A stretch of DNA of 64,000 nt from a virus. The notes beneath the pieces were generated by a model. The model was not told the origin of the DNA and searched no databases. It worked only from the letters and a program-made list of their open reading frames with translations. Position numbers and translations under genes: made by a program. The DNA lies in the IMG/VR virus record IMGVR_UViG_2849231242_000001; one strand, given 5' to 3'. Of this stretch, positions 21,309-40,849 are shown piece after piece. Numbering within the stretch: position 1 is the first letter of the stretch; each line of letters opens with the position of its first letter.

Positions 21309-21554
21309 TTACCCGATCGGGGAGTCGTGCTGATTGGTGCTCACCATGGCCTGGCGCAGCTTGCGTACCTGGGACAAGGCGCCTTGGGTCCTCGGCACCA
21401 CGTCCACTGGAGCGCTGGCAAGCGTTTCCAGGTGCAGTGCAGCTATGCTGTCGAGCAACTTGATCATCGCCATGTACAGATCGGTACCGCGATAGGCCCG
21501 CACCGTGACCAGCGCATCAACAGCGGCCGCATTCAGTTGCGTTTGGTCGGCCAT
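21309..21554 (-). CDS. Hypothetical small protein (81 aa) between portal and scaffold
   Basis: Coding GC3. Start overlaps the portal stop by 1 nt (ATGA). Confidence 0.4.
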   Translation of the reverse strand: MADQTQLNAAAVDALVTVRAYRGTDLYMAMIKLLDSIAALHLETLASAPVDVVPRTQGALSQVRKLRQAMVSTNQHDSPIG

Positions 21555-23932
21555 CAGTCGATCGCCTGCGTTTCGATACCCGCCTGCATGCCCTCGCCCG
21601 GCCCAGCCATGGCTGGTACGGCAGCATTCGGCGCTTCTGGCTCCGGCGCGTTGCCGGGCACTGGCGTCGGCAGATCGTTGCCGGGCGGCGGTGCCGCCGG
21701 CAAGGTATCCTGGGGCGCTTGCGGCATCTGTTGTGGCGCAGCAGCATCTTCCCAGCCGGACGACTTGAGGATATTGTCGGCGCCCGGCGCAATCGTCGGA
21801 TTGGTGGCGGCCACCCCGGCCGCTTGCGTGGCGGCATACACGGCGCCCACATTTTTCGCGGCGGCGTCGGCATTTTTCAGGCGTGCATTCGCCAGCACCT
21901 CTTGCACCTGGGCAGTCAGCTTGTCGAGGTTGGCCATTTTCAGTTTCATGTCCAGCTCCTGCTGCTGCTGGGCCAGTTGCTGCTGCTGTTTGGCCAATTC
22001 GTTGCTTTGTTCCGCAATGACTTCTTCTTCCGTTTTGACGACGTCGACCAGGTCGTGTGCTTCGGCACGCTGGCGCAACAGTTTTTCGCGTTTGATGAAC
22101 GGCGCATCGAGCGGATTGGCCGTCTGCGCGGAGAACGCATCGAGCTGCTGGGCGCGGATCTCCTTGGCTACCAGGGAGGCGCTGCCACGCGCCTTGATGT
22201 TGTAATCTCCCTTGATGTCGTTATCCTTATTGAACTGCATGTTCCAGCAATACAGCGCATTGATGAACGGGGTGGTAATGCCCTCGTCATAGCCGTTGAT
22301 CAGGTCCTTCATGACGACCGACGTATTGCCCATCAGCATGGATAGGCCCGAGGCAGTGCCGGCGGCGCCTTGGGTCGGATTTTCACCACCCATGTAGCGC
22401 GGTACGGCCGTGACCTCATCGGCATTGGTTTCGAACATGTTGACGATCGGATATAACTCTTCGAGCTTGCCCGGGATATTGAGCACGCGCACGGCCGGCG
22501 AGGCGGCATCCTTGCCATTGCGATACCACAACTTGAACGGATGCATGCGATCGGCTTTTTCCGTCGGTGACATCAAATCCATATTCACTTCAAACTGCGG
22601 ACCGGCGGTCAGGGCGGCGTTGTCCAAGATCATGCGCACACCCGCATTGATCATGGTTTGATCGTCGCGCATGATGGTGGCCAGGCCTTCGCCAAAGATC
22701 GATGTCTCATCCTTGTCGAAGTAGTACAGGTGGTAAGGCCAGGTCACGCCGTTGATGGGCTGCAGGGCGGCGCGCACCACCTCACCGTTCGGCAGCAGCC
22801 ACACGTTGGCGAAGAACGTTTCATGCATGCGCTCTTGCGGCACTTCAACCCCGCACGCCGCCAGCTGGACGGCATCGACCCATCCCCACCGCTCCAGAAT
22901 CTCGTACTGGCCGTCGGCGTTCTTGGTGGCGCCGCGCTCGCCGACTTGGCGCAGCTCTTCGTCGTAGGCCTTGCGCTGATGCGAGCCGTCTGGGTTCGAC
23001 AGCACGTATTCGCGTATCTTGTCGGCATCAAAACTCTTGCGCTCAGCCAGGGCCAGCGTGGCCGCCTTGCTCAGGACGTGGCGTTCATACACATAGCGGC
23101 AGTTTTCCAGCTCGGTCGCGCTCATGTCCGGGAAGAAGCGCCACAGCGGCACATAATCCACGAATGGCACGACATACGATTCCGTGATCGACTGCCACTT
23201 GCCATCCTTATGGATGAAGCGGGTCCGCACCTTGCGCTCGATCAGCGGCGCCTTCAAAATTCCCGTGCCGTACAGATGACCGGAATGGATTACGGCGCGG
23301 GCCGACTTCTTGTAGCGCGATTCGGTGAGCTGGTCATCGATCGTTTTCGACATGGCCTTGGCCGCAGCATCCACCATGTGCTTGATGGCGGCCTTGATCT
23401 CGTCCACCCCGGGCTTGCGCTGCAACACCTGGGTCAACTCGGCCGTGATCTTCGCCTCGGTTTCCGGCGCAACCGTCGGAACAGGCGTAGGCTCGATCGA
23501 CCAGTTGCGGTCAGCGTTGGCTGGGAACAGCAGATCAAATACACGCGAATCGACCGTCTTGACCTTTACGCGCGTCTTGCGCACGAAGGCCTTTGAACGG
23601 TCCGCGTCCATTTCGGCTTCAATATCGGGGTCATACTGGCCGCGATACTGGCGCAGGTCCTGTAACCACCGCAACTCTGTCTCGCGACGTTCTTGCTCTG
23701 CCTGGGCAAACTCAGCCAGCCACACTGCGCCCAAGCCCGCCAGCGTTTTAAATGCGGGCGCGCCGGGCTCTTCGGACATCAGCGCTTCCTGCGCGGCGCT
23801 TTCGTATTCCCGCCGCTCGGCTTCGCGCTGCGCTGCGGCCTGCGCGTTGAGCATGGCTTGGGCCATGGCGCCGAGCTGGCCTTGCTCAGGTACGGTGCTG
23901 TCTGTCATGGGGATGCTCATAAAAAAAGCCAC
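21554..23932 (-). CDS. Portal protein (792 aa, P22-like size with long C-terminal extension)
   Basis: Large ORF immediately downstream of TerL in the canonical position. Gln-rich C-terminal coiled region like long-barrel portals. Confidence 0.75.
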   Translation of the reverse strand: MAFFMSIPMTDSTVPEQGQLGAMAQAMLNAQAAAQREAERREYESAAQEALMSEEPGAPAFKTLAGLGAVWLAEFAQAEQERRETELRWLQDLRQYRGQYDPDIEAEMDADRSKAFVRKTRVKVKTVDSRVFDLLFPANADRNWSIEPTPVPTVAPETEAKITAELTQVLQRKPGVDEIKAAIKHMVDAAAKAMSKTIDDQLTESRYKKSARAVIHSGHLYGTGILKAPLIERKVRTRFIHKDGKWQSITESYVVPFVDYVPLWRFFPDMSATELENCRYVYERHVLSKAATLALAERKSFDADKIREYVLSNPDGSHQRKAYDEELRQVGERGATKNADGQYEILERWGWVDAVQLAACGVEVPQERMHETFFANVWLLPNGEVVRAALQPINGVTWPYHLYYFDKDETSIFGEGLATIMRDDQTMINAGVRMILDNAALTAGPQFEVNMDLMSPTEKADRMHPFKLWYRNGKDAASPAVRVLNIPGKLEELYPIVNMFETNADEVTAVPRYMGGENPTQGAAGTASGLSMLMGNTSVVMKDLINGYDEGITTPFINALYCWNMQFNKDNDIKGDYNIKARGSASLVAKEIRAQQLDAFSAQTANPLDAPFIKREKLLRQRAEAHDLVDVVKTEEEVIAEQSNELAKQQQQLAQQQQELDMKLKMANLDKLTAQVQEVLANARLKNADAAAKNVGAVYAATQAAGVAATNPTIAPGADNILKSSGWEDAAAPQQMPQAPQDTLPAAPPPGNDLPTPVPGNAPEPEAPNAAVPAMAGPGEGMQAGIETQAID

Positions 23933-23965: not shown

Positions 23966-25522
23966 TCAATACCCGGCGCTTGTGGGCGAGCGGTAATGCT
24001 GCTGGCCGCCTCGATGTTCGGATGCCGCGCTGATCGGCGCGATGTGCTCCGCAAAGGTGAGTGCGATTGCGTCGGCCAGATCGGGGGACCGGACCTGGCG
24101 CGCCTTCATTTCATCCTTCGATTCGACCAGCTTGCGACCGTTCGAGCTGGTTTTGTACTTGGGCGCCGACATATCGGCGACCAGTGCCGGGTTCGGCGGC
24201 AATGTGCAGGGTTGGTCTTCCACCCATTCCTTCATGCGATACCACATTTCCGCACGCTTATTCGCATAGGTTTCACTATCCTCGGCCTTCGATGCGCTGT
24301 TCACCCCAATGACAGGAATGTTCAACTCCTTGAGCCGGTCCACGATGCCGCTGCCAATGCCGATCTTGTCGACCAGCATGCCGTCAGGCTGATATTGCTT
24401 CCAGTGCGCCGCCAGGATGCCGGCTACTTCCATCGGCCCCTTTTTCTCGTACACCTCCAGGCGGAACACCACGCGGCCGCGCCTGAACGCGATCGCCGTG
24501 CGGTCCGGGCCGTATTCGGCTGGGTCGCAGCCGATGATCAGCGGACCCATCATCGCGCGGTAGTCGCTGGCGATGGCCGCCATGACGTCGGTGGGGTTGA
24601 TCAGCGGGTCGGTGGTGGCCGACTTGAACGCCAGCGCCGCCGTGGCGGGATACTCCTGATCGAACAGCCAGGCCATCGACTGGCCATAGGTGATGATCTT
24701 GTTAGCACGCCAGGCCATCTGAGCCATATCCAGGCCATAAGTCTCCATGTACTTCGTGTCGGCGGCCGACAGCTCGAAGTCTGCCGGCACGGCCGCGCGG
24801 TATTCGTCCTGCCAGAACCAGGGCACGAAAATGGCGATGTACTCGCCTATACCGGCTTCTGCGTCCTGCCACATCTGGTGGAAGGGGCCGCCGACACCAT
24901 TGGCCGTGGACTCGATAATGATTTCGGTGCCGTCCATGTCCGAAATCGCATTGCCCAGACCCGCCATGTGCATGATGGCGTTGTCCCAGAAGGCAAATTC
25001 CGAGGCGTGTAGCAGCTGGGCCGTGTTGGAGCGGCCCACGTCCTTGGAACCAGCCGTGGCGAGCTTGTAGCCGCCGTCGAGCCGGTTGAAGACCAGTTCC
25101 TTGCTGTTCGTCGCACTGGTGGACGGCGAGAAAACGTTGTGCTGGTGATACCGCTTCACCATCTTGAACAGGTTGTCAGTCGCCTTCTGCTCGTGGGCTA
25201 CGATGAACGCGTTGCGGCCGAAATTGATGCTGCTGATGCAGTAAAAGCGCGCGCCGATGTAAGTCGAAGCGCCCTGCTGACGGCCCTTGAGGATGATCGC
25301 GCGCACTTTGCCGGTGCGCTGGCGTTGTTCCTCGATCTTGGCGTGAATGTAGCGCTGCGCCCGATTGAAGCGCAACGGGACCTTCTTGCCCTCCTTGTCC
25401 TGCACGTACATACAGGTTTCGCAGTGCAATTCGATATCGTTTCGCAGCGCTTCAATCGTCCGATCGAATTCCGCCTGGCGGTTGCTACTCGCCATGCTTG
25501 GCCGCCACACGGCGGATGGCAT
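23966..25522 (-). CDS. terL: Terminase large subunit
   Basis: 518 aa. Walker-A-like ILKGRQQGAST. Nuclease-domain acidic residues in the C-terminal half. Overlaps the TerS end. Confidence 0.8.
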   Translation of the reverse strand: MPSAVWRPSMASSNRQAEFDRTIEALRNDIELHCETCMYVQDKEGKKVPLRFNRAQRYIHAKIEEQRQRTGKVRAIILKGRQQGASTYIGARFYCISSINFGRNAFIVAHEQKATDNLFKMVKRYHQHNVFSPSTSATNSKELVFNRLDGGYKLATAGSKDVGRSNTAQLLHASEFAFWDNAIMHMAGLGNAISDMDGTEIIIESTANGVGGPFHQMWQDAEAGIGEYIAIFVPWFWQDEYRAAVPADFELSAADTKYMETYGLDMAQMAWRANKIITYGQSMAWLFDQEYPATAALAFKSATTDPLINPTDVMAAIASDYRAMMGPLIIGCDPAEYGPDRTAIAFRRGRVVFRLEVYEKKGPMEVAGILAAHWKQYQPDGMLVDKIGIGSGIVDRLKELNIPVIGVNSASKAEDSETYANKRAEMWYRMKEWVEDQPCTLPPNPALVADMSAPKYKTSSNGRKLVESKDEMKARQVRSPDLADAIALTFAEHIAPISAASEHRGGQQHYRSPTSAGY

Positions 25523-26108
25523 CCTCTACGCCACTGCCGAGGTCTTCGTTATCCTTATCATCCATGCCGAACGCCTGGCGTTCCATTGCAACCAAGCTGC
25601 GCAGGGAGTCGGCCAGCGTCTTCATGGTGGAAGAGCGCGTGCTCAGCGAAATGACCTTCTCGAATAGCTCCAGGCGCTTGTTCTGGCCTTTCTCGTCGGG
25701 CTGGCACATGGCTTCCGCCAGCTGGTGCAGCAGGTCCCTGTTGTCCGTCTGGAATTCCAGCTCAGCAAGCAGACTGCTCGACAGCTTTCGGGCGCGCTGA
25801 ATGTCGGTGCGGTGCGCCAGGATAATCTGCGACTGCATCGCGGCATTGGCCTCGACAATATCGCGCTCTTGCGCCGGCGGCAGATCGGGTGCCGGGTCCG
25901 GCATCGCGGCATGCGCGATGATCGATTGCGTCTTGGCGCGTATCTTCTCGGTCAGGTTGCGCGTGATACCCAGCTTCGTGAAGCGCTTGTCCATGGCCGC
26001 GCGCGATACGCCGTACTGCACGGCCATCTGCTGCTTGGTCTTGACGCCGGCGCGCCAGTCCGCCTCGACCAGGTCCCAGTCGATCGCCTTTCTTTCTGCT
26101 GCTGCCAT
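25485..26108 (-). CDS. terS: Terminase small subunit (HTH DNA-binding)
   Basis: 207 aa. N-terminal HTH QQMAVQYGVSRAAMDKRFTKLGI. Directly upstream of TerL. Confidence 0.75.
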   Translation of the reverse strand: MAAAERKAIDWDLVEADWRAGVKTKQQMAVQYGVSRAAMDKRFTKLGITRNLTEKIRAKTQSIIAHAAMPDPAPDLPPAQERDIVEANAAMQSQIILAHRTDIQRARKLSSSLLAELEFQTDNRDLLHQLAEAMCQPDEKGQNKRLELFEKVISLSTRSSTMKTLADSLRSLVAMERQAFGMDDKDNEDLGSGVEDAIRRVAAKHGE

Positions 26109-26859: not shown

Positions 26860-27197
26860 TTCCGTGGCGGACTACCGCCATTTGATGATGGCCGATTGCT
26901 GATATCGGCTTGCAGCCTATAGAGCGGGAGTGGCCCGCCCCCGGAAGGGTAGTGTCCGTAACGCTCTGCGTCCCCTGCTCGCATATAGCATGCGACTCCC
27001 TGCCCCAGCTTGCGGGCAGCGATTCACCATCCTTCGACCCCTTGAAAGTGCCTATTTCAGGCCTCTTTACGCAAGAGACAGTTATTCAGACTATCGAATT
27101 GAGGCGAATTTTACGGCCATTTGTGCGGGTTTCGCCAGAACAAAATCGCGCGGATTTTCCCGCACAGGCTCCTTCCGGTATCCAAAGTAAACCGCTA

Positions 27198-27217
27198 TAC
27201 TGTATAAAAACACAGTA
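27198..27217 (+). promoter_or_regulatory. LexA (SOS) box overlapping the umuD promoter
   Basis: TACTGTATAAAAACACAGTA matches the CTGT-N8-ACAG consensus. Ends 13 nt before the umuD ATG. Confidence 0.8.
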
Positions 27218-27230
27218 TAAAGTAACCAAA

Positions 27231-27698
27231 ATGACCATCTTCCCCCCCATTCCGGCTAGTTCTGGCGTACTCCAGCCCGGCACGCCCGCCGCGCAACTCG
27301 CGCCGCTGGCATCACGGCCGCTGTTCTGCCAGAAAATTCCCGCTGGATTCCCGTCGCCGGCGGCCGACTATACGGAAAAGGGCCTGGACCTGAATACCTT
27401 CATGGTCCAGCACAAGGAAGCATCGTTCTTTTTCAAGGTGGTGGGCATGAGTTTGTCCGGGGTGGGCATCCTGGATGGCGACATCGTGCTGGTGGACCGT
27501 TCAGTTACAGCTGCGCACGGCCACTACGTGCTGGCCGTCATCGATGGCGAATATACGCTCAAGCGCCTGTACCGCCAGCACGGGGTCATCGAACTGCATC
27601 CTGAAAATCCCGCATTCAAGCCGATACGCTTGGTGGAAGGCAACGAACTGCAGGTGTGGGGTGTCGTCACTGGCGTGGTGCGCAAGTTGCGGGTCTAG
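27231..27698 (+). CDS. umuD: UmuD-like S24 peptidase (translesion polymerase V accessory subunit)
   Basis: LexA-like C-terminal domain with Ser (VGMSLSGVG) and Lys (TLKRL) catalytic dyad. Ala-Gly cleavage site IPAGF. Confidence 0.8.
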   Translation: MTIFPPIPASSGVLQPGTPAAQLAPLASRPLFCQKIPAGFPSPAADYTEKGLDLNTFMVQHKEASFFFKVVGMSLSGVGILDGDIVLVDRSVTAAHGHYVLAVIDGEYTLKRLYRQHGVIELHPENPAFKPIRLVEGNELQVWGVVTGVVRKLRV

Positions 27699-27700
27699 CC

Positions 27701-29002
27701 ATGGCTGATGCGCGCGCCCAGCTGTTCGCCCTGGTGGACGTCAATAATTGCTACGTGTCATGTGAGCGGGCGATGAATCCGCGGCTGCGTGATGTTCCGG
27801 TGGTGGTGCTGTCGAACAATGACGGATGCGCCGTGGCCAGGTCGAATGAGGTGAAGGCGCTCGGGGTGAGCATGGGGGAACCGTGGCATAAATTACAGGA
27901 CCTGGCGCGCCAGCACGGAATTGTGGCGTTGAGCAGTAATTACGCGCTCTATGCCGATTTTAGCAACCGCATCATGACGATCCTGCGCACCTACAGCCCG
28001 CACGTCGAGGTCTACAGCATCGATGAGGCCTTCCTGAGCCTGAACGGCATGGGCGGGCTGTGGGACACGCCTACGGCCATGGGCCAGGATATCCGCGCCA
28101 AGATACTCCAGTGGACCAGCCTGCCGGTGTGCGTGGGCGTGGGCGCATCGAAGACGCAAGCAAAGCTGGCCAACCACATCGCCAAGAAGTTTGCCCTGTT
28201 CAACAGCGTGTGCGATCTTTCCACGATGTCGGCCGCCCGCATGTTCTGGCTATTCTCCCGCATCGACGTCGGCGAGGTGTGGGGCGTGGGCCGGCGCATC
28301 GGCGACAAGCTGCGCGCCATGGGTATCAATTCGGTGCAGGACCTGAAAGAAGCCAGCCCGCGCGACATGCGTGCTAAGTTCGGGGTCGTGATGGAGCGCA
28401 CATGCAACGAGATTCGGGGCATTTCCTGCCTGGCCCTGGAAGAGGTGGCGCCACCACGCAAGGAAATCGTCAGCTCCAAGTCCTTCGGCGCCATGGTGGC
28501 CAGCATCGACGAACTGGGCCAGGCCGTGACGTCCTATGTCACGCGCGCCAGTGAGAAGCTGCGGTCGCAGGATTCGGTCTGTGGGGCCGTCCACGTCTTT
28601 ATACAGACCAACCCTTTTCGCAAAATGGACTTGCAGTACAGCAATGGCCTGACCGTGCCCTTGATTGTGCCGACGGACGATAGTCGCGTGCTGGCCGGCG
28701 CCGCCCTGCATGGCTTGGAACGGATATTCATCGAAGGCTTCCGCTACAAGAAGGCTGGCGTGATGCTGTTGGACCTGTCGCCCAAGAGCATGCTACAGGG
28801 CGTGCTGTTTGATGAAGCGCGCCCGCGCGAACCCGCTGTCAAGGTGATGGCGGCGCTCGATGCGCTGAACGATCGGTTCGGGCGGGACTCGGTGACGCTC
28901 GCGTCGGCAGGCCTGGCCCCGCGCTGGGCGATGCGCTCCGGCAATAAGACGCCCTGCTATACAACCAGGTGGGACGAGTTGCCAAAAGCCAATGCCAGAT
29001 GA
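27701..29002 (+). CDS. umuC: UmuC-like Y-family DNA polymerase
   Basis: N-terminus MADARAQLFALVDVNNCYVSCERAMNP matches the UmuC/DinB palm motif (FALxDVNxFYASCE). 434 aa. Confidence 0.85.
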   Translation: MADARAQLFALVDVNNCYVSCERAMNPRLRDVPVVVLSNNDGCAVARSNEVKALGVSMGEPWHKLQDLARQHGIVALSSNYALYADFSNRIMTILRTYSPHVEVYSIDEAFLSLNGMGGLWDTPTAMGQDIRAKILQWTSLPVCVGVGASKTQAKLANHIAKKFALFNSVCDLSTMSAARMFWLFSRIDVGEVWGVGRRIGDKLRAMGINSVQDLKEASPRDMRAKFGVVMERTCNEIRGISCLALEEVAPPRKEIVSSKSFGAMVASIDELGQAVTSYVTRASEKLRSQDSVCGAVHVFIQTNPFRKMDLQYSNGLTVPLIVPTDDSRVLAGAALHGLERIFIEGFRYKKAGVMLLDLSPKSMLQGVLFDEARPREPAVKVMAALDALNDRFGRDSVTLASAGLAPRWAMRSGNKTPCYTTRWDELPKANAR

Positions 29003-29033: not shown

Positions 29034-29276
29034 TCATTTCAACACCGGTACCATGCTGCTCTTCCCTAGCTGGCGGCGATACAAAATCTCGATCCGGTAA
29101 TCGCCATGCATCGCGCCGGCTATCTCGGTCGCGGTGGCCAGCTGTTCTCTGGCGCTTTCGAGCCTGTTCACCTGACGCATGACACTGGTTTGAAGCGAAT
29201 CCACGCCCACAAGTTTGTCAATTCGGGCTGACAGCATAGCCAAAGCGCTACCCATTGTAAAAGTAGCTGGAATCAT
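29034..29276 (-). CDS. Hypothetical protein (80 aa)
   Basis: ORF with coding GC3 at the end of the minus-strand accessory operon. Confidence 0.35.
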   Translation of the reverse strand: MIPATFTMGSALAMLSARIDKLVGVDSLQTSVMRQVNRLESAREQLATATEIAGAMHGDYRIEILYRRQLGKSSMVPVLK

Positions 29277-29545
29277 TTAAGGCCCAGCGCTTTCCTCGCC
29301 TCCTTGATGCCAGCCAGTGCCGGCGGCACCTGTGCACGGATAAGCGAAAACAGCTCCCGCATATCGCGCTCGAAGGGCTGCATGTAGGCCTTGCCCAGCT
29401 TCACGTAGAAGGCCTTGAAGAAATTGTCAGGCCCGTAGCCGGCCAAGGCATCCAGTGCGCGCAGCTGGCCCTCGGTGAGCTCGATGCTGGCCGTGATACT
29501 GACGCTGGTATTGATCTTGATGTCGCTCACAATGTTCCTTCGCAT
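29273..29545 (-). CDS. Hypothetical protein (90 aa)
   Basis: C-terminal coding part of ORF 29273..29911 starting at MRRNIVSDIK. The N-terminal part of that ORF is an out-of-frame artefact. Confidence 0.4.
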   Translation of the reverse strand: MRRNIVSDIKINTSVSITASIELTEGQLRALDALAGYGPDNFFKAFYVKLGKAYMQPFERDMRELFSLIRAQVPPALAGIKEARKALGLK

Positions 29546-29898
29546 GCTGGGACGTTCTCGCCCAAGGTTGACTGGGCCACATCCGGCACGTCGGCGCCGA
29601 AGACGGCCGCCACGTAGGCCCGCATGGCCGCTTCCAGCCCGGTTGCGCCGGCCTGCCATCCGCAGTAGGTCGCTTCCCAGCCGCCCAGGTAGGGGCCGAT
29701 GCGCACGCCAATGCGGTCGATGATGGGCCAGCTGACGGCCGGGTTGGTCGATGGGTCGAACCGCTGCTTGCCGCCGCGCACGCAGATCAGCATATCGGTG
29801 CGCGGCACCAGCTGGATGCGCAGCTGGTCGGCCGGGATGCCCTCGGCACGCCCTACCCAGTAATCGAGCAACGCATCGGTAAGCAGGGATACCCTCAT
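29527..29898 (-). CDS. Hypothetical phage protein (123 aa)
   Basis: ORF MRVSLLTDALLDYWVGRAEG... with coding GC3. Confidence 0.4.
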   Translation of the reverse strand: MRVSLLTDALLDYWVGRAEGIPADQLRIQLVPRTDMLICVRGGKQRFDPSTNPAVSWPIIDRIGVRIGPYLGGWEATYCGWQAGATGLEAAMRAYVAAVFGADVPDVAQSTLGENVPACEGTL

Positions 29899-30530
29899 GC
29901 TTGCACCCCACGTTTCAGCATCTTGTCGATGTCAGCGATGATTTCGGCCTGCGTTCCGCGCGGTCCGAAGTCCACAATCGTGTCGCGCGCCTCCCGCAAC
30001 AAGTTAAGCGCCGGGTCTGTCCACACGGACGGATGAATACTCAGCGCGCTCGATGCCGGGCATGGTGATATGGAGTCTCGCCGCAGTTTGAGGAGAGCCC
30101 GTGCAATGTTCTCGCCTTCGTCCACCATCCGATCCCGCACGCCACGGCCAGCCAGCAGCGCATCAAGGGGGATGCCGGTCATTTTGATGACCAGACGAGA
30201 TGCCACCTGCATTGCCTCACTCCATACCTGGTCAATAGAGGTCTGCAGGACATCGACAGCGTTAATGAGTGCTGGCGGCTCGAATGGCCCCACAGCGCAG
30301 TCCTCACGCAGTGGACTACCCTGTAGTGCGTTCATCACTTTCATCAGGGCAGCATATGCGGCGCCGGCGTCCTCCACCAGCTCGCCCTGGTACATCATGC
30401 CCTTTGCGGTGAGGCGCAGTTCGTTCGGACCCGGATGAAACACGAAGTCGTGGATGATGGGCTGTCCCATCGTAATCGAACCGGCGGCAAGAACGTCCGT
30501 GGGTATGCCGATACGGTACTGGCTGCTCAT
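29895..30530 (-). CDS. Hypothetical protein (211 aa)
   Basis: ORF, translationally coupled (ATGA-type overlaps) with its neighbours. Confidence 0.4.
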   Translation of the reverse strand: MSSQYRIGIPTDVLAAGSITMGQPIIHDFVFHPGPNELRLTAKGMMYQGELVEDAGAAYAALMKVMNALQGSPLREDCAVGPFEPPALINAVDVLQTSIDQVWSEAMQVASRLVIKMTGIPLDALLAGRGVRDRMVDEGENIARALLKLRRDSISPCPASSALSIHPSVWTDPALNLLREARDTIVDFGPRGTQAEIIADIDKMLKRGVQA

Positions 30531-31246
30531 GCGGCGACTTCTGCACGGCGTGCCTTGGCGCGCTTGCGTGCACCGCCATGGCCTTGCCGCTTACTGGGAA
30601 CAGTTCGGAGGTCAAGAACATGGCCTTGCCGATCGATCTTGACAGTTGCCGAGTGATCGCCGCCCACCTTCCCCAGGTCCGTGCCGATAATTACCGCTTT
30701 AGACGGAATTGCCAGGTTTATTGATTCGCTGTCAGGCCGCTGGAGCTCCGCCCACAATCGGGCCTGTCCGTGCGCAAGGGCGATAAATTCGGCAGCGGTA
30801 CTCGTATCGCATTTGCTTGTGGGTGTTACATCCGCTTGCTTGAAGAGATCCTTGATCGCAACGTTGTCGATAGCGACCATTCCCCCAGGAGAGATAGTCA
30901 CCTTGCGGACGGACAGGCCATAAGCCAGTGCGTCGCGCATGTGGTTCGCATCCGTGCGCTCGGCGCGCTCCATCATCGCCTTACCAATGGCTATCAGTTC
31001 CGGGTCAACCGCACAGGTTGCCAAAGGTTTGATCAGGGCGCCTTGAGTCTTTTTTGCTTTCGTTTTCACCAGCAAGTAGGCATGCACCATCAATGCTACG
31101 GCGGGGAGGATAAAGATCGCCAGGTTGAGGTAGCTGAACACGGGCAACTGGTGAGCTGCTTGCATGGAACTTACCGCCGCATGAAGAACGGTCAGGACGA
31201 GTAAGGCGGTGGTAATGCCGAAGTGAGTGAGGCGCATGATTATCAA
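30527..31246 (-). CDS. Membrane protein (2 N-terminal TM helices plus a soluble C-terminal domain)
   Basis: 239 aa. Hydrophobic N-terminal helices. Same operon as the SPFH gene. Confidence 0.45.
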   Translation of the reverse strand: MIIMRLTHFGITTALLVLTVLHAAVSSMQAAHQLPVFSYLNLAIFILPAVALMVHAYLLVKTKAKKTQGALIKPLATCAVDPELIAIGKAMMERAERTDANHMRDALAYGLSVRKVTISPGGMVAIDNVAIKDLFKQADVTPTSKCDTSTAAEFIALAHGQARLWAELQRPDSESINLAIPSKAVIIGTDLGKVGGDHSATVKIDRQGHVLDLRTVPSKRQGHGGARKRAKARRAEVAA

Positions 31247-31255
31247 TCCAGGGGG

Positions 31256-31516
31256 TTAGGCGAAGGGGAATGCTTGGCGCACGGCTGTGGTGCTGCGCTT
31301 GAGGTAACAAGGCAGGCGCAGGCCGCGCCAATCGATGAAGGTCTGCCCGTGGCACGCCAAGCCGGACAGGGCCTTGGCGAAGTAGCTATGGAAGCCCTGA
31401 CGGGTGAAGATCGCCGGCGACGGGCGGGCGTAGATCATCGCGTGCGGCCAGACGAATGGGAAGGATGCGGATTTGGTCATGGAGTTATCTTTCGACGTGC
31501 CGCGCACAATGCGCAC
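31256..31516 (-). CDS. Hypothetical small protein
   Basis: 86-aa ORF (a 74-aa version starts at MTKSASF). Confidence 0.3.
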   Translation of the reverse strand: MRIVRGTSKDNSMTKSASFPFVWPHAMIYARPSPAIFTRQGFHSYFAKALSGLACHGQTFIDWRGLRLPCYLKRSTTAVRQAFPFA

Positions 31517-31526
31517 GGCACTGTTT

Positions 31527-32468
31527 TTACTTGCTCATGTTGAGGAAAGGGATCGGAGCGCCCGAATACATGTTCTGTGGCAAGGCGCCGTCCCAGCGCT
31601 CGGCCTTGACCTTCTCGACTTCAATGCGGCGCAGTTCGAGCACATCCTTGCTTTGGGCCAGAGCGGAGTTCTGGATACGCAGGGCATCGGCTTGGGCGGT
31701 TGCTACCTTCAAGTTCGCATACGCTTCGCCATCCGCCTTGGCCTTGAGCGCGCTCGCTTCGGCTTCGGCAATCGCCACCTTCTGCTTCTGTTCCGATTCC
31801 ACGGTGCGCAACTTGTTTTCGGCGCCCAGACGCAGCTGTTCCTGGGTAACTTTTTCGCTGATCGCCTTCATGTAATCGCCGCCGAACGAGAAATTGCGCA
31901 TATCGATGTTGATCACCTGGGCGCCGTACATTTCCAACTTGACCGACAGCGCGGTTGCGATATCAGCCGATACTTGCGCGCGCTTGGCGATCAGGTCAGG
32001 CGCGTTGTAGCGGGCCGTCACGGCCTTAAACGCTTCCTGCGTGGCAGTTTGAACGTAGGAAGACAGATCGCCGTCATGGCTATACTTCTCGTAGACCTCG
32101 GCCACCTTCGCTACCTTGATGCTGTAGCGCACGGTCATGCTGACCTTGACCGGCTGGGTATCTGACGTATTGCCATCCGCGTTCTCGATGCTGGCCGTCT
32201 CGGCACGCACGCTGAACAGTGCGAGCTTTTCCCATGGCGCCAAAATGACCAGGCCTTCGTTCTGGATACCTTTGATGGCGCCGAACTGGGTGACAACGCC
32301 GCGCGAGCCGGTAGGCACGGTGCGGAATGGCCAATAAGCCAGCAGCATCACCAGGATGAGCAGCGCGCCGATAACGTCGCGCGCGATGGCAAAGGAGTTG
32401 AGAGCTTTATGGGCTGGCGTGTAGTCGCCGGCAGGAACATCCTTGGTATAGCGTTGTGCAAATTTCAT
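31527..32468 (-). CDS. SPFH/band-7 (HflK/prohibitin-like) membrane protein
   Basis: 313 aa. N-terminal TM (IGALLILVMLLAYWPF), SPFH core, C-terminal Ala/Glu/Lys coiled coil (VAIAEAEASALKAKADGEAYANLKVATAQADALRIQ). Confidence 0.7.
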   Translation of the reverse strand: MKFAQRYTKDVPAGDYTPAHKALNSFAIARDVIGALLILVMLLAYWPFRTVPTGSRGVVTQFGAIKGIQNEGLVILAPWEKLALFSVRAETASIENADGNTSDTQPVKVSMTVRYSIKVAKVAEVYEKYSHDGDLSSYVQTATQEAFKAVTARYNAPDLIAKRAQVSADIATALSVKLEMYGAQVINIDMRNFSFGGDYMKAISEKVTQEQLRLGAENKLRTVESEQKQKVAIAEAEASALKAKADGEAYANLKVATAQADALRIQNSALAQSKDVLELRRIEVEKVKAERWDGALPQNMYSGAPIPFLNMSK

Positions 32469-32515
32469 TAATTACTTTCTTTTGATGCCGCGCAGATCGG
32501 GGCGCGGCTTCCCGT

Positions 32516-32836
32516 TTAGCGCATGGCACCTTCGAAAGCTGCCTGAGCTGCTTTGTACTCATCGGAATCCGGTAGCGCGCCCTCGTAGGGCAGATACACC
32601 CGCGCGGTGTAGTCCATCCTGGTGAACAGCACATCGACAGGGTCGTGGCCGTTGCATTCTTTGTTGAATGGTGCAAACAGGTGCGTCCACGGCCCAGGCT
32701 GGCCATCAATTATGTCGAGCTTGAGGTGATCGAGCTTGTTCGCCCAACGTGGCATACGCAGCCGATTGATGCCGCGCGCGGCGGCCTCATCGATGGAGAT
32801 AAGGATGGTCGTGGCGGTCACAGGGATTCCTTCCAT
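32516..32836 (-). CDS. Hypothetical protein (106 aa)
   Basis: ORF with coding GC3. Confidence 0.35.
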   Translation of the reverse strand: MEGIPVTATTILISIDEAAARGINRLRMPRWANKLDHLKLDIIDGQPGPWTHLFAPFNKECNGHDPVDVLFTRMDYTARVYLPYEGALPDSDEYKAAQAAFEGAMR

Positions 32837-33063
32837 GCGAGGAATGGCGCGCGCACCAGGGTATGGAAGCGCTGGCCAGCCGCTTCATTGGTGTCGAGTT
32901 CCACGCGCGACTTCACCTGGCAGGTGGTGGTGATGAAGTCTTTGGCGGCATCGGCGGAAGCGATCACGGCAGGGCTGTTGAAGTCGGCCCACTGCCAGAA
33001 TTGCGGGTCGCGGCAGAACACGCACGCGATGATGCACAGGTCGCGGGGATTGGCGGCCGTCAT
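32818..33063 (-). CDS. Hypothetical protein (81 aa, Cys-rich)
   Basis: Start at MTAANPRDLCIIACVFCRDPQFWQW. Confidence 0.35.
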   Translation of the reverse strand: MTAANPRDLCIIACVFCRDPQFWQWADFNSPAVIASADAAKDFITTTCQVKSRVELDTNEAAGQRFHTLVRAPFLAWKESL

Positions 33064-33635
33064 GCGCTGGCCCCCTTCGCCGTTGCTGTGCTGCTGTCGA
33101 GAACGCGGCGAGGTATAGGGCGTGCGTTCCAGCCCTGCCAAGCACATTCAACGTCCCTATTGCGATACCGTCCCCCTGGATGCCGATCAACGGAACCATG
33201 GCCGCCATAGAGGATGGTTTGCTCAAACAGCCCACGCGGGCCGTGGTCATTTACCGCCAGTTTGATTTGCAGCTCCGCGCGTGGGAAGCGGGACATGCAC
33301 GGCCCAAGTTCCCATTGGTCAATGTTTTGCTTGGCGAAGTAGCGGTCGACCAGGTGAGCGGCGGCGATGACATCGGCTGGCGGCATTGGGTGAAATTGCG
33401 GGCGCAGGTCAGGGTCGCACACCTCGTAACGGCGCTCAAAATCATGCTTGCTCATCAGTTCTGTTTCGCCGCCCGGGTGTTCGAGGAAGAAGTCGCCAGG
33501 AGATGCACTACCGTACTTGAGACGGCCCCGCCCATCGGCGAATTGAACGTAGACCGACCCGCCGCTCTGGTAGTTGACCCAAGTGATGGGCGTCGCCATG
33601 ACCCCCGCCGGCTTTAGGTGGTGGGTTACTTGCAT
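33060..33635 (-). CDS. Hypothetical protein (~191 aa)
   Basis: Start at MQVTHH with AGGAAG SD. Overlaps the upstream gene end by 10 nt. Confidence 0.4.
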   Translation of the reverse strand: MQVTHHLKPAGVMATPITWVNYQSGGSVYVQFADGRGRLKYGSASPGDFFLEHPGGETELMSKHDFERRYEVCDPDLRPQFHPMPPADVIAAAHLVDRYFAKQNIDQWELGPCMSRFPRAELQIKLAVNDHGPRGLFEQTILYGGHGSVDRHPGGRYRNRDVECAWQGWNARPIPRRVLDSSTATAKGASA

Positions 33636-33898
33636 GGCGGCCGCTTCCTGTGGGTGGTGCGCGCTTTGATGACCGGGTTGCATTCCTCATAGGCGAGGTC
33701 AAACGCTTCCTTGGTCATGGTGAAGCTGCCGCCCAAGTTGGGCGAGACAGCAATGTCGCCAACAGTAGGCTTGTCGGCCGAGGCGAGCATGCCCCCGTCG
33801 GCAAGTGCGGAAAAGAAGCGGCGAGGCGCGCCCTCTTCTACGCGGACAATCGCCGAGGCATGAACGCCGTCAGGGTCCGGTTGCGGGTTTGGTTGCAT
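33626..33898 (-). CDS. Hypothetical protein (90 aa), first gene after the attP-like region
   Basis: Starts MQPNPQPDPDGVHASAIVRVEEG. Confidence 0.4.
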   Translation of the reverse strand: MQPNPQPDPDGVHASAIVRVEEGAPRRFFSALADGGMLASADKPTVGDIAVSPNLGGSFTMTKEAFDLAYEECNPVIKARTTHRKRPPCK

Positions 33899-33899
33899 T

Positions 33900-34296
33900 A
33901 TTGTTATCTCCTGTCGAAGGGGGTTGGTGAAGTGGGCAGGTTGCACAGTTCGCGCTTGTGCAACTTTTTGTGTAACCGTGGTTTGTGTAACTTTTAGAGG
34001 GTCTTCCAACAGGTCCGATTTTTCGATGAAGACGGCGCCGCGCGGCCTGCCCTGCAGCTGTTCTGCATGAACCCCTGGCGCAGAGCTAACCCATTGATAT
34101 TGCTTATGATTCGTGCTTTTCGATGCAAGCATTCGTGCGCGGTCGCCGGGCCGTGGAACAATTGCCTTCGCATCAACTTGATGGTTGCGATTTTGGTTGC
34201 GCAACCGCTGTGCAACCAGCGGCGCAACTGCCGAATTTCCCAGGAGCGGCGCGCAACCGGGAAATTGACACTGATGATTTCGTATTGTCGGGTTCT
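33900..34296. repeat. Repeat-dense intergenic region downstream of the integrase gene (candidate attP/arm-type sites and promoter)
   Basis: At least 7 copies of a TGYGCAAC / GCGCAACC motif in both orientations, including the inverted repeat GTTGCACA-N9-TGTGCAAC, the direct repeat TTGTGTAAC x2 and the palindrome TTGCGCAA. Confidence 0.5.
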
Positions 34297-35364
34297 TCAT
34301 GTGGCTACAGGCTCTCCGGGAAGGTCCGCGCCCGATTCGCGCCCACCGAAACGTATCTTCGATTCAATGCGGTCCTGTGCGGCCCCAGCGGTGTCCATGT
34401 TGATTTCCAGATAACGCATGGTGGTGGCCGAATCCTTGTGCCGCATCATTGCCTGGATGGTTTGAATGGGCGTGCCTTCCTCGGACAACAGGGTTGCGCA
34501 CGTCCCGCGCAGCCGGTGCGGTGTGATACCGGTGAGCCCGGTGATCGCATTGGCCTTGCGCATCGCGTGACGCGCATATCCCTCTGGAAGTTGTCCGCGT
34601 CGACGAGATGGCGCTACCAGCCCTTCTACCTTGCGGCGAGCCTGTAAGTACTCCGCCAGCCAGCCAGGCATACGGATCGGCACTGCTTCCTTGCCCTTGG
34701 TGATACCGGGCGTGTAGGTGCCACGCTCCCAATCCACCCACTCCCAGCGCGCGCTGGCCGCTTCCGATTCGCGCAGGCCCAGTCCGTACATGAGCCGCAC
34801 GGCAATGCCGACGGAGGAATTGCGGCCGGTGGCGGTATCCAAGGCGCTGAACCATGCATCGGTCAGCGCCAGGGGCAGAATCTTGCGGGGCGTTTTTTGC
34901 TCAGGCAGCATCGCTATATCCCATGGCAAGGACGGCAACACATTGCGCTTGACGGCCCAGTTCACCAGCAGCCGCAAAATGCGCAGCCAGTGGTTGCCAG
35001 ATGCGGGCTTGCGCGTGGCCAGGTGCTTATTGCGGGCTACCTCGACCCGAAGCGTATTGAGCTGGTCGATCGGCAGCGGGCCCATGCCGTACAGGTGGTT
35101 GCGCTTGAACGTGCTGATTCCCCGCCGATGTGATGCGCTGGCCACAGGGCCGCGTATCTCTTCCCACTCGGCGATCAGCGCATCGAGCGTGGGCATGATG
35201 TGCCCTCCGTTCACACGGATCAGCGCAGCAGCGTAGGCCAGATTGGCGATGGCCTGCGCGCGCCGCTTATCTCGCTCGCGGGTGCTGCGTTGGACGCGGG
35301 GCAATGGCGCGAGACGGAACCGATAGTGGTACAGGCGGCCGCGCAGGAAGACGGTGCAGGTCAT
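34297..35364 (-). CDS. int: Tyrosine recombinase / phage integrase
   Basis: 355 aa. C-terminal catalytic motifs HRLRGTCAT and MRHKDSATTMRYL (R..H..R..Y). Confidence 0.85.
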   Translation of the reverse strand: MTCTVFLRGRLYHYRFRLAPLPRVQRSTRERDKRRAQAIANLAYAAALIRVNGGHIMPTLDALIAEWEEIRGPVASASHRRGISTFKRNHLYGMGPLPIDQLNTLRVEVARNKHLATRKPASGNHWLRILRLLVNWAVKRNVLPSLPWDIAMLPEQKTPRKILPLALTDAWFSALDTATGRNSSVGIAVRLMYGLGLRESEAASARWEWVDWERGTYTPGITKGKEAVPIRMPGWLAEYLQARRKVEGLVAPSRRRGQLPEGYARHAMRKANAITGLTGITPHRLRGTCATLLSEEGTPIQTIQAMMRHKDSATTMRYLEINMDTAGAAQDRIESKIRFGGRESGADLPGEPVAT

Positions 35365-35409
35365 GGTTGGCGATTGGCGTGGATGAGATGGTGGCCGGGC
35401 ATGACGCGG

Positions 35410-35841
35410 TCAGTCCTCGTCAGCGATGGCAAGGGCAACGTGCTTGGCGGTGCTCGCTTGCATATCCTGGTGCGCCCGCTTGAGGCTGGGGTAGAGCTTG
35501 AATGCACGGTGGCCGAAGCGCCGCACCAGGTCGTAATAGGTACGCAAGCCGACGCCCAGCTGGTCCGCCGTGCGTTTCACCACCTGATGTGGCTTGAGGT
35601 AGAAGCATTCGAAGGCCAGCCACTCGCGCTGGTACTTCGCCACGTCGCGCAGCGTGTGCACGGCCATGTTGAAATATTGCATGTCAGGGTCATTGCGGGC
35701 GTTTGGCTCACGACCGGAGCCGCCGCCTGAAGCGACAGCACCCAGCACGCCATGGCTCACGGACTTGATGTAGAAGTGGCGCGTCTCGCACCAGCGCACC
35801 CAATCCCAGCAATGTTGTACAACCGGATCCTTCGATTTCAT
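35410..35841 (-). CDS. Hypothetical protein (143 aa), possible late-gene regulator
   Basis: ORF at the end of the nin-like early operon. No motif recognised. Confidence 0.35.
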   Translation of the reverse strand: MKSKDPVVQHCWDWVRWCETRHFYIKSVSHGVLGAVASGGGSGREPNARNDPDMQYFNMAVHTLRDVAKYQREWLAFECFYLKPHQVVKRTADQLGVGLRTYYDLVRRFGHRAFKLYPSLKRAHQDMQASTAKHVALAIADED

Positions 35842-35910
35842 TCAGCCCGCCTCCATTATCAACGGAGGGCAGTCTAAATGCGGTTCTTGAAAAACTTAGA
35901 TTATCGGCAG

Positions 35911-36270
35911 CTACAGGCTGATTCGCCATGGGAACATGGGGGAATAGCCGAGGAACAGGGGCTTGGCAAAGAAATTGCGCACGCGCGCCGGCACGATCGA
36001 ACTTGGTGCTTGTGGTTCGCGCAGCTTCTGCTCGAGCAACGAGCGGGCAAGGTCGGTGATCCGGTACATGATCCCCTCCTTCACCAGGCAACCTTTCGTC
36101 ACTAGGCTGGTGTACAGCTCGACCATCTTAGCGTGGTTGATCCCCATCGGCAGGGTGCGGTTGGGAAACTCGCCATGGGCTTCGGCGCCCTGGTAAATCG
36201 TCATCGGCCCTCGGCGCAAGAAGGCGATCAGGATGGCCTCGCCGCGCGAATTGGATTCCGGCAGCTTCAT
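35911..36270 (-). CDS. Winged-helix DNA-binding protein (119 aa)
   Basis: LVTKGCLVKEGIMYRITDLARSLL wHTH-like segment. Confidence 0.4.
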   Translation of the reverse strand: MKLPESNSRGEAILIAFLRRGPMTIYQGAEAHGEFPNRTLPMGINHAKMVELYTSLVTKGCLVKEGIMYRITDLARSLLEQKLREPQAPSSIVPARVRNFFAKPLFLGYSPMFPWRISL

Positions 36271-36578
36271 CGTGGTGGACCCATGCGGTGTAGTGCTTGC
36301 TCCAGTTCGTCCATCACTGGGCTTAGGTGGGCGAGCGCCTGGGCCAGCTGCGCCCTGTGCGGCGGATAAGTCATGCGCGATTCAGCGTCAACACGATCAA
36401 AGTGCCGCAGCAACTCATCCAAGTCACGCCGGCGAACAATGCAGGCGTCAGGGTGGGAGTGATGGCGATGGCGGCCATCCACAGGATGTTCCTGGGCCGC
36501 TTCACGTAATCGTTTCAAACTCTCGTCAAATGCCATGTTGTGCTTGTGAGGTGAAATGGTCTGTCGGTCAAGCCGCAA
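36267..36578 (-). CDS. Hypothetical protein (start uncertain: 36578 or 36536)
   Basis: ORF 36267..36578. The alternative start MAFDESLKRL lies 42 nt inside. Confidence 0.35.
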   Translation of the reverse strand: MRLDRQTISPHKHNMAFDESLKRLREAAQEHPVDGRHRHHSHPDACIVRRRDLDELLRHFDRVDAESRMTYPPHRAQLAQALAHLSPVMDELEQALHRMGPPR

Positions 36579-37107
36579 GGGGCGCGGCTTTGAAAAAGTT
36601 GCCTTCGTTGATGCGTTCTATCATGGTGCGCTCTGCCCGCGCTAAATCACCGCGGAGTGCCACCTCAAGCTGGGCGTCAGCCACCACAAGAGCTTGCGGT
36701 ATCGTGGCGATGGCAGGGCCATCAAGCCGGAAAGTGCCAAGACGGAAGCCTCGCGCGGACGCCCGGAATATGGCCTCTTGAGCTTCGATGAACAGCTCTT
36801 GGTACTCGGCCCCAATCCCGTCCTCACACAGCAGCAGCCCAATGTTGATGGCCTCGCACAACGGCGACCATGCCTCATGTGGTGCCTGGTGGCACTTGAT
36901 CTGCACAAAGGCCGTCCAGTAGCGCAGGCATGATTCGATGCGGTGCAAGTCGGTCAGCGGCTGGCGCATCGCGTGGTCAATTTCCTCTTGCACGGCGGCT
37001 GATTTCGACAAAATGCTGACGACGTTACACGCAAGGCCATGGCGGACCCGTTTCTTCGGCGCCGGCGGCGGCGCCGGTGGCGCGATGGCACGCGCACGCA
37101 TAGCCAT
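36568..37107 (-). CDS. Hypothetical protein (~179 aa)
   Basis: Real coding part starts at MAMRARAIAPP and overlaps the upstream stop as TGATG. The N-terminal portion of ORF 36568..37404 is an artefact. Confidence 0.4.
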   Translation of the reverse strand: MAMRARAIAPPAPPPAPKKRVRHGLACNVVSILSKSAAVQEEIDHAMRQPLTDLHRIESCLRYWTAFVQIKCHQAPHEAWSPLCEAINIGLLLCEDGIGAEYQELFIEAQEAIFRASARGFRLGTFRLDGPAIATIPQALVVADAQLEVALRGDLARAERTMIERINEGNFFKAAPLAA

Positions 37108-37457
37108 TAAGCAAACTCCTTGGGGGCCTGGTTGGCGCCGTGGTGCTGGGGCGTAGATGGCTTCATGTTCATTTCCTTGATTTTCTTGAGCAGGGCCGCC
37201 GATTCCTCGCGTCCCTTCGCTTTTACCTGGTCGTGCTGCTGCTGGGCAATTCGAGCTTTGTAAGCCAGCTGCCGCTGGTACTCGGCCCGAACCTGTTGCT
37301 TGAGTTCTGCCAATGCTGCTTCCCCCTCCGCATTTCGGACCCGGTCGTACACTGCTTGACGGGCATGCGCTGGCGCGCCGGCCAGAAGTCGTCGCTGGCA
37401 GCACTCCCGATGGGCGTCAAAGCGCCCGGTCAGGAAGAGGCAGAACTCGCAGTTCAC
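37107..37457 (-). CDS. Hypothetical protein (116 aa), Cys-rich N-terminus
   Basis: ORF with coding GC3. Confidence 0.35.
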   Translation of the reverse strand: MNCEFCLFLTGRFDAHRECCQRRLLAGAPAHARQAVYDRVRNAEGEAALAELKQQVRAEYQRQLAYKARIAQQQHDQVKAKGREESAALLKKIKEMNMKPSTPQHHGANQAPKEFA

Positions 37458-37702
37458 TTCGCTTCCAAGCCCAGCAGGGCAAAGATTTCAGCGATCGACA
37501 GGCCGGAGCGAAAGTGCATGCGGATCATCATGCGCGATGTCACCTGCAGCTTGCCGTGACGAATCTTGCTGATGACAGCCGGCGCCACCTCCAAGGCGCG
37601 GCACAGGGCCGCATCGTTTTTCACGCCCATGCGTTCGCGGACGCAGTCGAGCAGTTGGTTAGCTCCGGTGGTGTCCGGCAGATCCTGTGATGTGGTGCTC
37701 AT
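37454..37702 (-). CDS. HTH DNA-binding protein (XRE/Cro-like fold)
   Basis: 82 aa. LLDCVRERMGVKNDAALCRALEVAPAVISKIRHGK helix-turn-helix. Confidence 0.5.
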   Translation of the reverse strand: MSTTSQDLPDTTGANQLLDCVRERMGVKNDAALCRALEVAPAVISKIRHGKLQVTSRMMIRMHFRSGLSIAEIFALLGLEAK

Positions 37703-38664: not shown

Positions 38665-38697
38665 CGTCGCCCATCCTTACGGCAATGGGCGCTATTT

Positions 38698-39246
38698 CTA
38701 CTTGCTATACTCATCTGCAATCAATCCTTTGTGCTTCAAAATCGGCCGGCTTTTTGCCCGCGCTACTTCAAAATGATCCTGGACCAGGTCATAGGTCCAA
38801 TCTGGGAAAGACGCCCAGCCGCCATCGAGGAACGCGTGGCATTGCGCGCAGCCATAGCACCCGGCCTCGTCCTTTGCTTTGATGCCCATCCCCTTCCCGT
38901 CGATCAGCCGGTTGGAATGGCACCAGACCGTTGTGTCGGTGTTGTTCCGGCAGATGCCGGCGAAATTCAGTGTGCAATCCTCGCCCTTGGCTGAACGCCT
39001 GATGGGTGTCATTTTTGGACCGCGCGTGCGCATCCGTCGCATGCGCGGCGCCGTTGCCGTGCCGTCGGTCTTTAACCAGCTCATGGCGCTCGTGCGGGCC
39101 AGCTGGCCGCCCGTCGATGGGAAGGGGGAACGCACGAGGGGGGTTGAACTGGCGACCATCGCGGTACGCTTGAGGGGAGTATTGCGGGAGGGCATCGGCG
39201 AACGGGTCAGGCCGGTCGTGCCGAGCGCCATGGAAGAACGCTTCAT
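38698..39246 (-). CDS. YbcO-like (DUF1364, nin-region) putative nuclease with N-terminal TPL-repeat extension
   Basis: C-terminal 100 aa CTLNFAGICRNNTDTTVWCHSNR...GCYGCAQCHAFLDGG resembles E. coli YbcO (CQVRIPGVCNGN...ACSACHDEID). Start ATG overlaps the upstream stop (GGAGGCGTATGA). Confidence 0.5.
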   Translation of the reverse strand: MKRSSMALGTTGLTRSPMPSRNTPLKRTAMVASSTPLVRSPFPSTGGQLARTSAMSWLKTDGTATAPRMRRMRTRGPKMTPIRRSAKGEDCTLNFAGICRNNTDTTVWCHSNRLIDGKGMGIKAKDEAGCYGCAQCHAFLDGGWASFPDWTYDLVQDHFEVARAKSRPILKHKGLIADEYSK

Positions 39247-40041: not shown

Positions 40042-40063
40042 GGTAGTTAAGAAATGTAAGAAG

Positions 40064-40841: not shown

Positions 40842-40849
40842 TATCCATA

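Follow-up and report, generated by a model that had tools for sequence, protein, structure and literature searches.

DNA polymerase V (Pol V) genes are known from several kinds of mobile element. The mucAB (pKM101), rumAB (R391/SXT) and rulAB genes and the umuD-dinB genes of pACM6 are all mobile, LexA-regulated operons of the UmuDC type. LexA-regulated rumAB is carried by the integrative and conjugative element (ICE) R391, and much is known about mobile Pol V enzymes, RumA'2B for example (PMC8460599, PMC9262582). Acidovorax citrulli pACM6, a plasmid from the Burkholderiales, has one CTGT-N8-ACAG box on its entire sequence, at umuD (PMC6595937). Prophage umuDC alleles of Acinetobacter baumannii, which belongs to a genus without LexA, are induced by DNA damage but repressed by UmuDAb (PMC3978071), and the Bacillus phage-plasmid RBClin15 encodes YolD together with a UmuC-like Y-family polymerase (PMC11526630). 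The succession of LexA box, umuD and umuC is not new; it is already common in phages, plasmids and conjugative elements. Here we describe such an operon in a 64,000-nucleotide stretch of viral DNA, the window, from the IMG/VR record IMGVR_UViG_2849231242_000001. Very probably, it is a self-contained umuD-umuC operon that is repressed by LexA and travels as cargo on a temperate phage-plasmid, about 70.7 kb in size, from the Oxalobacteraceae.

The operon is preceded by a perfect palindrome, TACTGTATAAAAACACAGTA, at 27198-27217 (unstranded), in which the CTGT-N8-ACAG core is extended to TACTGT/ACAGTA and which ends 13 nt before the umuD ATG at 27231. The initial annotation had placed a perfect box directly upstream of umuD-umuC, the whole spanning 27198-29002, and both the box and the coordinates proved exact. 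The bare core occurs only once in the window, at 27200-27215, and is not significant alone: 0.67 copies are expected by chance and at least one copy was present in 56 of 100 shuffled windows. The extended form, with 12 specified bases, has a chance expectation of 0.01 per window and was present in one of 100 shuffles. We also scanned the 64-kb window with a 20-bp LexA weight matrix, trained on 19 E. coli LexA operators; a further 6.7 kb or so of the element, within a giant open reading frame (ORF), lies outside this window. The site at 27198-27217 scored 28.7 bits, beating 16 of the 19 training sites, and the best scores of 200 shuffled windows averaged 11.9 bits with a top value of 20.1.

In NC_000913.3, the umuDC operator of E. 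coli K-12 reads TACTGTATATAAAAACAGTA, and 18 of its 20 bases are shared with the window site. The identical 20-mer lies upstream of umuD in other copies of the operon (L036, L038, L162, L163, L080 and L159), and the copy in L161 differs by one base. The matrix and shuffle statistics, with this conservation in relatives, led us to reject a chance match. CTGT-N8-ACAG is given as the LexA motif of most Betaproteobacteria in the passage of PMC6595937 that cites Sanchez-Alberola 2015. The site has the quality of a functional operator and appears to be an SOS box of the Beta/Gammaproteobacteria type overlapping a candidate -10 element, to which the host LexA would be expected to bind. Two further matrix sites, the second-best at 25398 (12.6 bits) and the third-best at 45327 (11.6 bits, between parB and a rep-like gene), scored at chance level and were rejected as operators.

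A promoter for umuDC is proposed at 27173-27201 (+), with conservation as its sole basis. The window, L036, L038, L161 and L162, whose flanking sequences are otherwise unrelated, have in common the pattern TTCC(G/T)G-N17-TATACT with the operator after it, and pattern and operator are also retained in L163. This conservation amid unrelated flanks led us to propose a -35-like element, TTCCGG, at 27173-27178, separated by a 17-nt spacer from a -10 element, TATACT, at 27196-27201. The predicted -10 overlaps the left arm of the LexA box, so the box would cover both the -10 and the start site. At rumAB of R391 the LexA site likewise overlaps the -10 (PMC8460599). Downstream, umuD ends with its stop codon at 27698 and umuC begins with an ATG at 27701, leaving a 2-nt gap between two genes on the plus strand, and gene calls on public contigs confirmed their order and adjacency.

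The umuD gene (27231-27698, +) encodes a 155-residue protein that matches Pfam Peptidase_S24 (E = 9e-28) and the NCBIfam model of the autoproteolytic Pol V subunit, NF007621 (140.5 bits, cut-off 110). It scored 92 bits against the LexA model, below the cut-off of 111. Its top match in the PDB was E. coli UmuD (8gmt, 4e-32). Residues A38-G39, S74 and K111 align with C24-G25, S60 and K97 of E. coli UmuD, which are the cleavage site and the Ser/Lys dyad, and G39, S74 and K111 are invariant in this alignment. Compared with E. coli UmuD, the N-terminal arm has 14 additional residues, and it is poorly conserved among relatives. The protein lacks DNA-binding domains, including a helix-turn-helix (HTH). 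No other ORF in the window is S24-like. The LexA box had initially been described as the only direct SOS-sensing element seen. This stands for operators, as the matrix scan of the 64-kb window found no second LexA-type site above chance level, but it does not extend to proteins, as UmuD is itself an S24 protein that senses activated RecA (RecA*).

The umuC gene (27701-29002, +) encodes the Y-family catalytic subunit, a protein of 433 residues with Pfam IMS, IMS_C, IMS_HHH and DUF4113 domains. It scored 468 bits against the NCBIfam UmuC model NF002955 (cut-off 431) and far under the cut-offs of all DinB/Pol IV models. In a comparison that used the E. coli K-12 genome record, the catalytic residues D13 and D108-E109, the steric-gate residue Y18 and the beta-clamp motif QxxLF at 366-370 (Q366, L369, F370) were all invariant. 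A sequence search of the PDB with UmuC gave no match at E <= 1e-20. The ratio of non-synonymous to synonymous substitution rates (dN/dS), calculated against copies 73-84% identical, was 0.11-0.15 for umuC and 0.17-0.27 for umuD, and both genes are therefore under purifying selection. Together, umuD and umuC look like an intact and apparently functional Pol V operon.

These features suggest how the operon would work. In an undamaged lysogen, host LexA would occupy the operator over the predicted -10 and start site and block transcription. On DNA damage, RecA* would promote self-cleavage of LexA, and umuDC would be transcribed, in the orientation opposite to that of the phage lytic genes. UmuD dimers would then be cut on RecA* between Ala38 and Gly39 by their own Ser74/Lys111 dyad, and UmuD'2 with UmuC would form Pol V, able to replicate across lesions in DNA of both the element and the host chromosome at the cost of mutations. 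The sequence comparisons establish the anatomy of the operon, the families of its proteins, their intact active sites, purifying selection, an operator and promoter kept in several mobile contexts, the status of umuDC as cargo and the phage-plasmid nature of its carrier. We infer LexA binding, damage induction, RecA*-dependent UmuD cleavage, translesion activity and any effect on fitness or mutagenesis. Greater SOS mutagenesis of both host and element, which had been predicted at the outset, is a reasonable inference because mucAB, rumAB and prophage umuDC provide precedents (PMC9262582, PMC3978071).

The position of the operon fits with a role as cargo. The initial annotation described it as transcribed opposite to the late genes and lying between the accessory region and the late operon, and our gene map agrees on both points: umuDC is on the plus strand and terS, terL and the portal gene are on the minus strand, and the early and accessory genes lie on one side (29034-40446, -) with the late genes on the other. 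The left boundary of the cassette is a conserved non-coding block of the phage backbone at 27032-27167 (-), upstream of the late operon. It consists of a terminator-like hairpin (27166-27147) with a T-run, followed by a nearly invariant core, CCGTAAAATTCGCCTCAATTCGATAGTCTGAAAAACTG (CCGTAAAATTCGCCTCAATTCGATAGTCTGAA.AACTG). The block is 78-93% identical across the phage family, including relatives without umuDC (L014-L018 and L023), and 90% identical in a Massilia violaceinigra plasmid. It had no Rfam match and may be a late promoter or leader, or a packaging site. About 30 nt separate the LexA box from 27167, the point to its left where similarity of the backbone to these relatives ends. In L016, L017 and L023 the equivalent of this block is followed by a tRNA-like sequence. 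On the other side, an 80-residue ORF (29034-29276, -) with no Pfam or PHROG match is convergent with umuC, whose stop codon is 31 nt away. This ORF is present in L163 and absent from the more distant umuDC-bearing relative L036.

Comparison of relatives indicates that the cassette comes and goes. None of 22 relatives found in IMG/VR through TerL has umuDC within 10 kb of terL, nor do the Massilia contigs, that of Massilia frigida included, have it within this distance. L163 has umuDC in the same slot with DNA about 98% identical, and L036, a more distant member of the family, has it in the same slot with an identical operator and a UmuC 84% identical. Overall the cassette was found in elements from at least four samples at 84-100% identity. 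Its presence or absence among syntenic relatives, its own predicted promoter and its orientation opposite to the lytic operons mark umuDC as phage cargo, a 'moron'.

Relatives without umuDC carry something else under apparent LexA control. L015, L016, L017 and L023 have LexA boxes in the corresponding region that score 25-28 bits, and each box precedes, by about 10-35 nt, a gene for a small homologous protein without assigned function (L015 3264-3920, -; L016 4257-4631, +; L017 6356-6694, -; L023 3611-4225, -). A SRAP gene directly follows in L015 and L016, and L023 has a SRAP-like match about 2 kb from its box. The domain of the small protein is about 100 residues long, is sometimes duplicated and contains the motifs EDGGRP..W and G.E.DeL..K.taQsW. 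It had no Pfam match, and a word-indexed homologue search with it returned only the protein itself. An exhaustive search found its family in 44 cluster representatives among 1.84 billion. The AlphaFold model is all-beta, with a predicted local distance difference test (pLDDT) score of 84, and had no significant match in the PDB (best E = 0.27, template modelling (TM) score <= 0.44). The window has neither a homologue of this protein nor SRAP. As one slot contains either umuDC or the LexA-box small protein with or without SRAP, it seems recurrently to hold damage-tolerance cargo under SOS control.

Pol V genes of the same kind are found in Janthinobacterium genomes. All three copies examined are SRAP-umuD-umuC cassettes adjoining phage genes (L038 6771-9302, L161 7771-10302 and L162 7771-10302), one beside a P2-like capsid and terminase module and two beside tail-fibre and lysis genes, and each has its LexA box in the interval from SRAP to umuD. 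In Janthinobacterium, Pol V may be mostly phage-borne. More widely, the exact 20-mer of the window operator occurs in more than 120 IMG/VR contigs with G+C contents from 36% to 67%. Among the 120 retrieved (L041-L160), 17 have umuD or umuDC immediately downstream; anti-repressors are one possibility for the genes controlled by the remaining 100 or so operators.

Put together, these observations allow a broader but tentative reading, which we regard as possible rather than probable: that Pol V in Janthinobacterium and related Oxalobacteraceae is supplied essentially by temperate phages only and that this phage family keeps a dedicated LexA-controlled slot for damage tolerance. The suppliers may be this phage-plasmid family, P2-like prophages and siphovirus-like prophages, with Pol V not part of the core chromosome. 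The slot may be a site beside the late promoter that alternates between umuDC and the small all-beta protein with or without SRAP. If this is true, SOS mutagenic capacity is a trait conferred by phages and swapped horizontally.

The carrier is best called a circular phage-plasmid of about 70.7 kb rather than just an integrated prophage. Two public assemblies, SRR12364938_96 and SRR12364930_43, each of 70,765 bp, match the window with 100% identity. Their different break points and 30-nt end overlap indicate a circle of 70,735 bp. A version about 98% identical, of 70,884 bp, is present in ERR3440445. A TerL relative, 74% identical, is encoded by a complete 87-kb circular replicon listed as 'plasmid unnamed' in Massilia violaceinigra B2 (NZ_CP024609.1), on which genes for a capsid and a tail fibre are also present. 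Because circular permutation of a virion genome would yield a circular assembly too, the main support for a plasmid state comes from the partition genes and this Massilia relative. Megablast of positions 20000-44000 against deposited phages gave no match, which suggests that the backbone has no close cultured relative. The window has no tRNA genes and no Rfam family at gathering score.

The late genes to the left of umuDC, all on the minus strand, include terS (25485-26108), terL (23966-25522) and an SU10-type portal gene (21554-23932), with the capsid and tail genes. The early region to the right, also on the minus strand, includes a NinX-like gene, a tyrosine recombinase (34297-35364) embedded in the region and conserved in relatives, and a replication initiator (37699-38664). 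A lambdoid switch region follows, with a CII-like gene (40141-40446, -), a probable Cro-like ORF (40486-40827, -) and a cI-like repressor candidate (40850-41263, +). The last of these, with 137 residues, has an HTH domain only, as expected from the early description of a CI-like repressor without an S24 domain. Beyond it are the partition genes for ParA (43100-44185) and ParB (44182-45282), a second tyrosine recombinase (46957-48120, -) between the rep-like gene and KfrA (48131-49081, -), and a ParE toxin (49689-49997). The two recombinases may serve dimer resolution or integration. The accessory arm carries an SprT-like metalloprotease (53042-53773, +), an H-NS-like protein (55600-55914, +) and a C5 cytosine methylase (57397-59496, +). 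SprT-like proteins act on DNA-protein crosslinks, and this gene, which has no LexA box, may provide a second function related to DNA damage. About 23% of the element is a giant ORF of 5,495 residues on the minus strand (60906-64000 and 1-6658, joined via the 6.7 kb or so outside the window), which reads from an ATG at 6658 across the window start and from the window end to a stop at 60906. It has Pfam matches to FtsK_gamma, InPase, Eco57I, a helicase domain and LPD37.

The most likely host is Janthinobacterium (Oxalobacteraceae). This is because the nearest named UmuC proteins are from Janthinobacterium (73% identical), Massilia (71%) and Undibacterium (64-66%), and because a closely similar remnant of the gene is found on a J. 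lividum replicon. The remnant is a truncated umuC, 92% identical to residues 40-433, on the 440-kb replicon of J. lividum HAMBI_1919 (NZ_CP139977.1; L040 15001-16182). It is annotated as two ORFs without umuD or a LexA box, adjoins non-ribosomal peptide synthetase and polyketide synthase (NRPS/PKS) genes and looks like a decayed copy of the same umuC lineage.

Several points weigh against a self-contained, LexA-repressed operon that raises mutagenesis. A generic sigma-70 scan gave no promoter upstream of umuD, and the proposed -35 is weak. The umuD ATG lacks an obvious Shine-Dalgarno sequence, and no intrinsic terminator of the operon's own, a usual mark of moron cargo, was found between 29002 and 29034, where umuC runs head-on into the convergent ORF. 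The context of the catalytic serine of UmuD is GMSL and not the usual GDSM. Host LexA and RecA are outside the window, and the match of operator to repressor is predicted from taxonomy and conservation. In R391, even SOS induction yields very little Pol V because of repressors that the element encodes (PMC8460599), and carriage of umuDC therefore need not mean more mutagenesis. R391 is a mobile element whose switch is lambda-like, and this precedent (PMC8460599) also raises the possibility that regulators of the element additionally repress umuDC, as SetR/CroS do rumAB on R391, leaving little Pol V and no noticeable rise in mutagenesis. The element does have an immunity region with cI-like, Cro-like and CII-like genes, but 27030-27240 and 40401-40900 share just one word of at least 9 nt, a 9-mer at 27114-27122. 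This lies 84 nt upstream of the LexA box, between the core of the late block and the hairpin, so that the predicted promoter does not include it. Copies on unrelated phages moreover have the same segment of promoter and operator, which argues against element-specific operators, and we consider additional repression unlikely. The missing Shine-Dalgarno sequence and terminator would also fit a cassette that is a decaying or silent passenger without current function, and the truncated remnant without umuD on the J. lividum replicon shows that copies do decay. The window copy is different: both frames are intact with every key residue present, dN/dS is 0.11-0.27, the operator is perfectly conserved and the cassette recurs in elements from at least four samples at 84-100% identity, making a silent passenger very improbable.

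With a repressor candidate that lacks an S24 domain and UmuD as the sole S24 protein in the window, UmuD might be mainly a phage regulator or SOS sensor like UmuDAb, or an anti-repressor that replaces the absent domain, rather than a polymerase subunit, and its longer N-terminal arm could be read in the same way. That arm is, however, poorly conserved among relatives. UmuDAb is about 200 residues long, and the UmuD described here has 155 residues and no HTH or DNA-binding domain, scores above the UmuD subfamily cut-off and below that of LexA, and is translationally adjacent to a complete umuC. We find a mainly regulatory UmuD scarcely credible. A more serious alternative is that the LexA-controlled operon mainly serves the element, either during plasmid maintenance or after induction, by allowing replication of its own damaged DNA in Weigle-type reactivation, with host mutagenesis as a side effect. 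Weigle reactivation of lambda depends on umuDC. The cassette is under purifying selection on phage genomes, umuDC recurs as phage cargo in the clade, and in relatives the same slot holds other damage-tolerance genes (SRAP) behind LexA boxes. Against this, the operon opposes lytic transcription, as is usual for genes expressed in the lysogen, Pol V acts in trans on any cellular DNA, and nothing in the sequence separates an advantage to the element from one to the host. A benefit mainly to the element is thus conceivable, but on the whole we think it rather unlikely. We continue to favour a LexA-repressed Pol V operon, carried as cargo, whose product would act on both host and element DNA.

Error-prone polymerases on mobile elements disseminate the potential for stress-induced mutagenesis and, as a result, for faster adaptation, drug resistance being one example. 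With the operon described here, the known carriers come to include a phage-plasmid of environmental Betaproteobacteria. The suggestion that Pol V travels mostly with phages in Janthinobacterium is useful for annotation and for studies of adaptation to UV and cold environments. The example leaves our understanding of Pol V and of SOS regulation unchanged.

Compared with the chromosomal umuDC operon of E. coli, the window operon has the same order of operator, umuD and umuC, with UmuD 43% and UmuC 48% identical, but is carried by a phage-plasmid. The cleavage site is Ala-Gly in place of Cys-Gly, the distance from box to ATG is 13 nt against about 21 nt in E. coli, and the two genes are separated by 2 nt where those of E. 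coli overlap by 1 nt. Among deposited phages, umuDC is carried by Salmonella vB_SosS_Oslo, Cronobacter ENT39118, Enterobacter CobraSix, Escherichia PHB10 and phages of Klebsiella and Acinetobacter, with UmuC proteins 40-48% identical to that of the window. The three inspected, Oslo, ENT39118 and CobraSix, have a canonical LexA box about 20-40 nt upstream of umuD (TACTGTATATAAAAACAGTA, TACTGTATAAATACACAGTA and TACTGTATTAATATACAGTG). These deposited phages are integrating siphoviruses of Gammaproteobacteria with the cassette beside tail-fibre and integrase genes, whereas the carrier of the window cassette is a phage-plasmid of Betaproteobacteria, with the early genes on one side of the cassette and the late promoter region on the other.

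Unlike the Pol V operons of plasmids and ICEs, the operon described here has a carrier that also encodes a full virion. R391 has a SetR/CroS site as a second operator (PMC8460599), whereas a comparison of the umuD upstream region with the immunity region found no element-specific second operator here. The phage-plasmid RBClin15 differs in being Gram-positive, in having YolD as the accessory protein instead of UmuD and in that it would use a different LexA motif. Counterparts in the same host family are the cassettes at prophage ends of Janthinobacterium sp. P210006, J. violaceinigrum and J. lividum. Their UmuC is 73% identical, their promoter is conserved and their operator is identical to that of the window or one base different. 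They have SRAP upstream and lie at the ends of integrated prophages, whereas the window copy has no SRAP and is carried by a plasmid-like phage.

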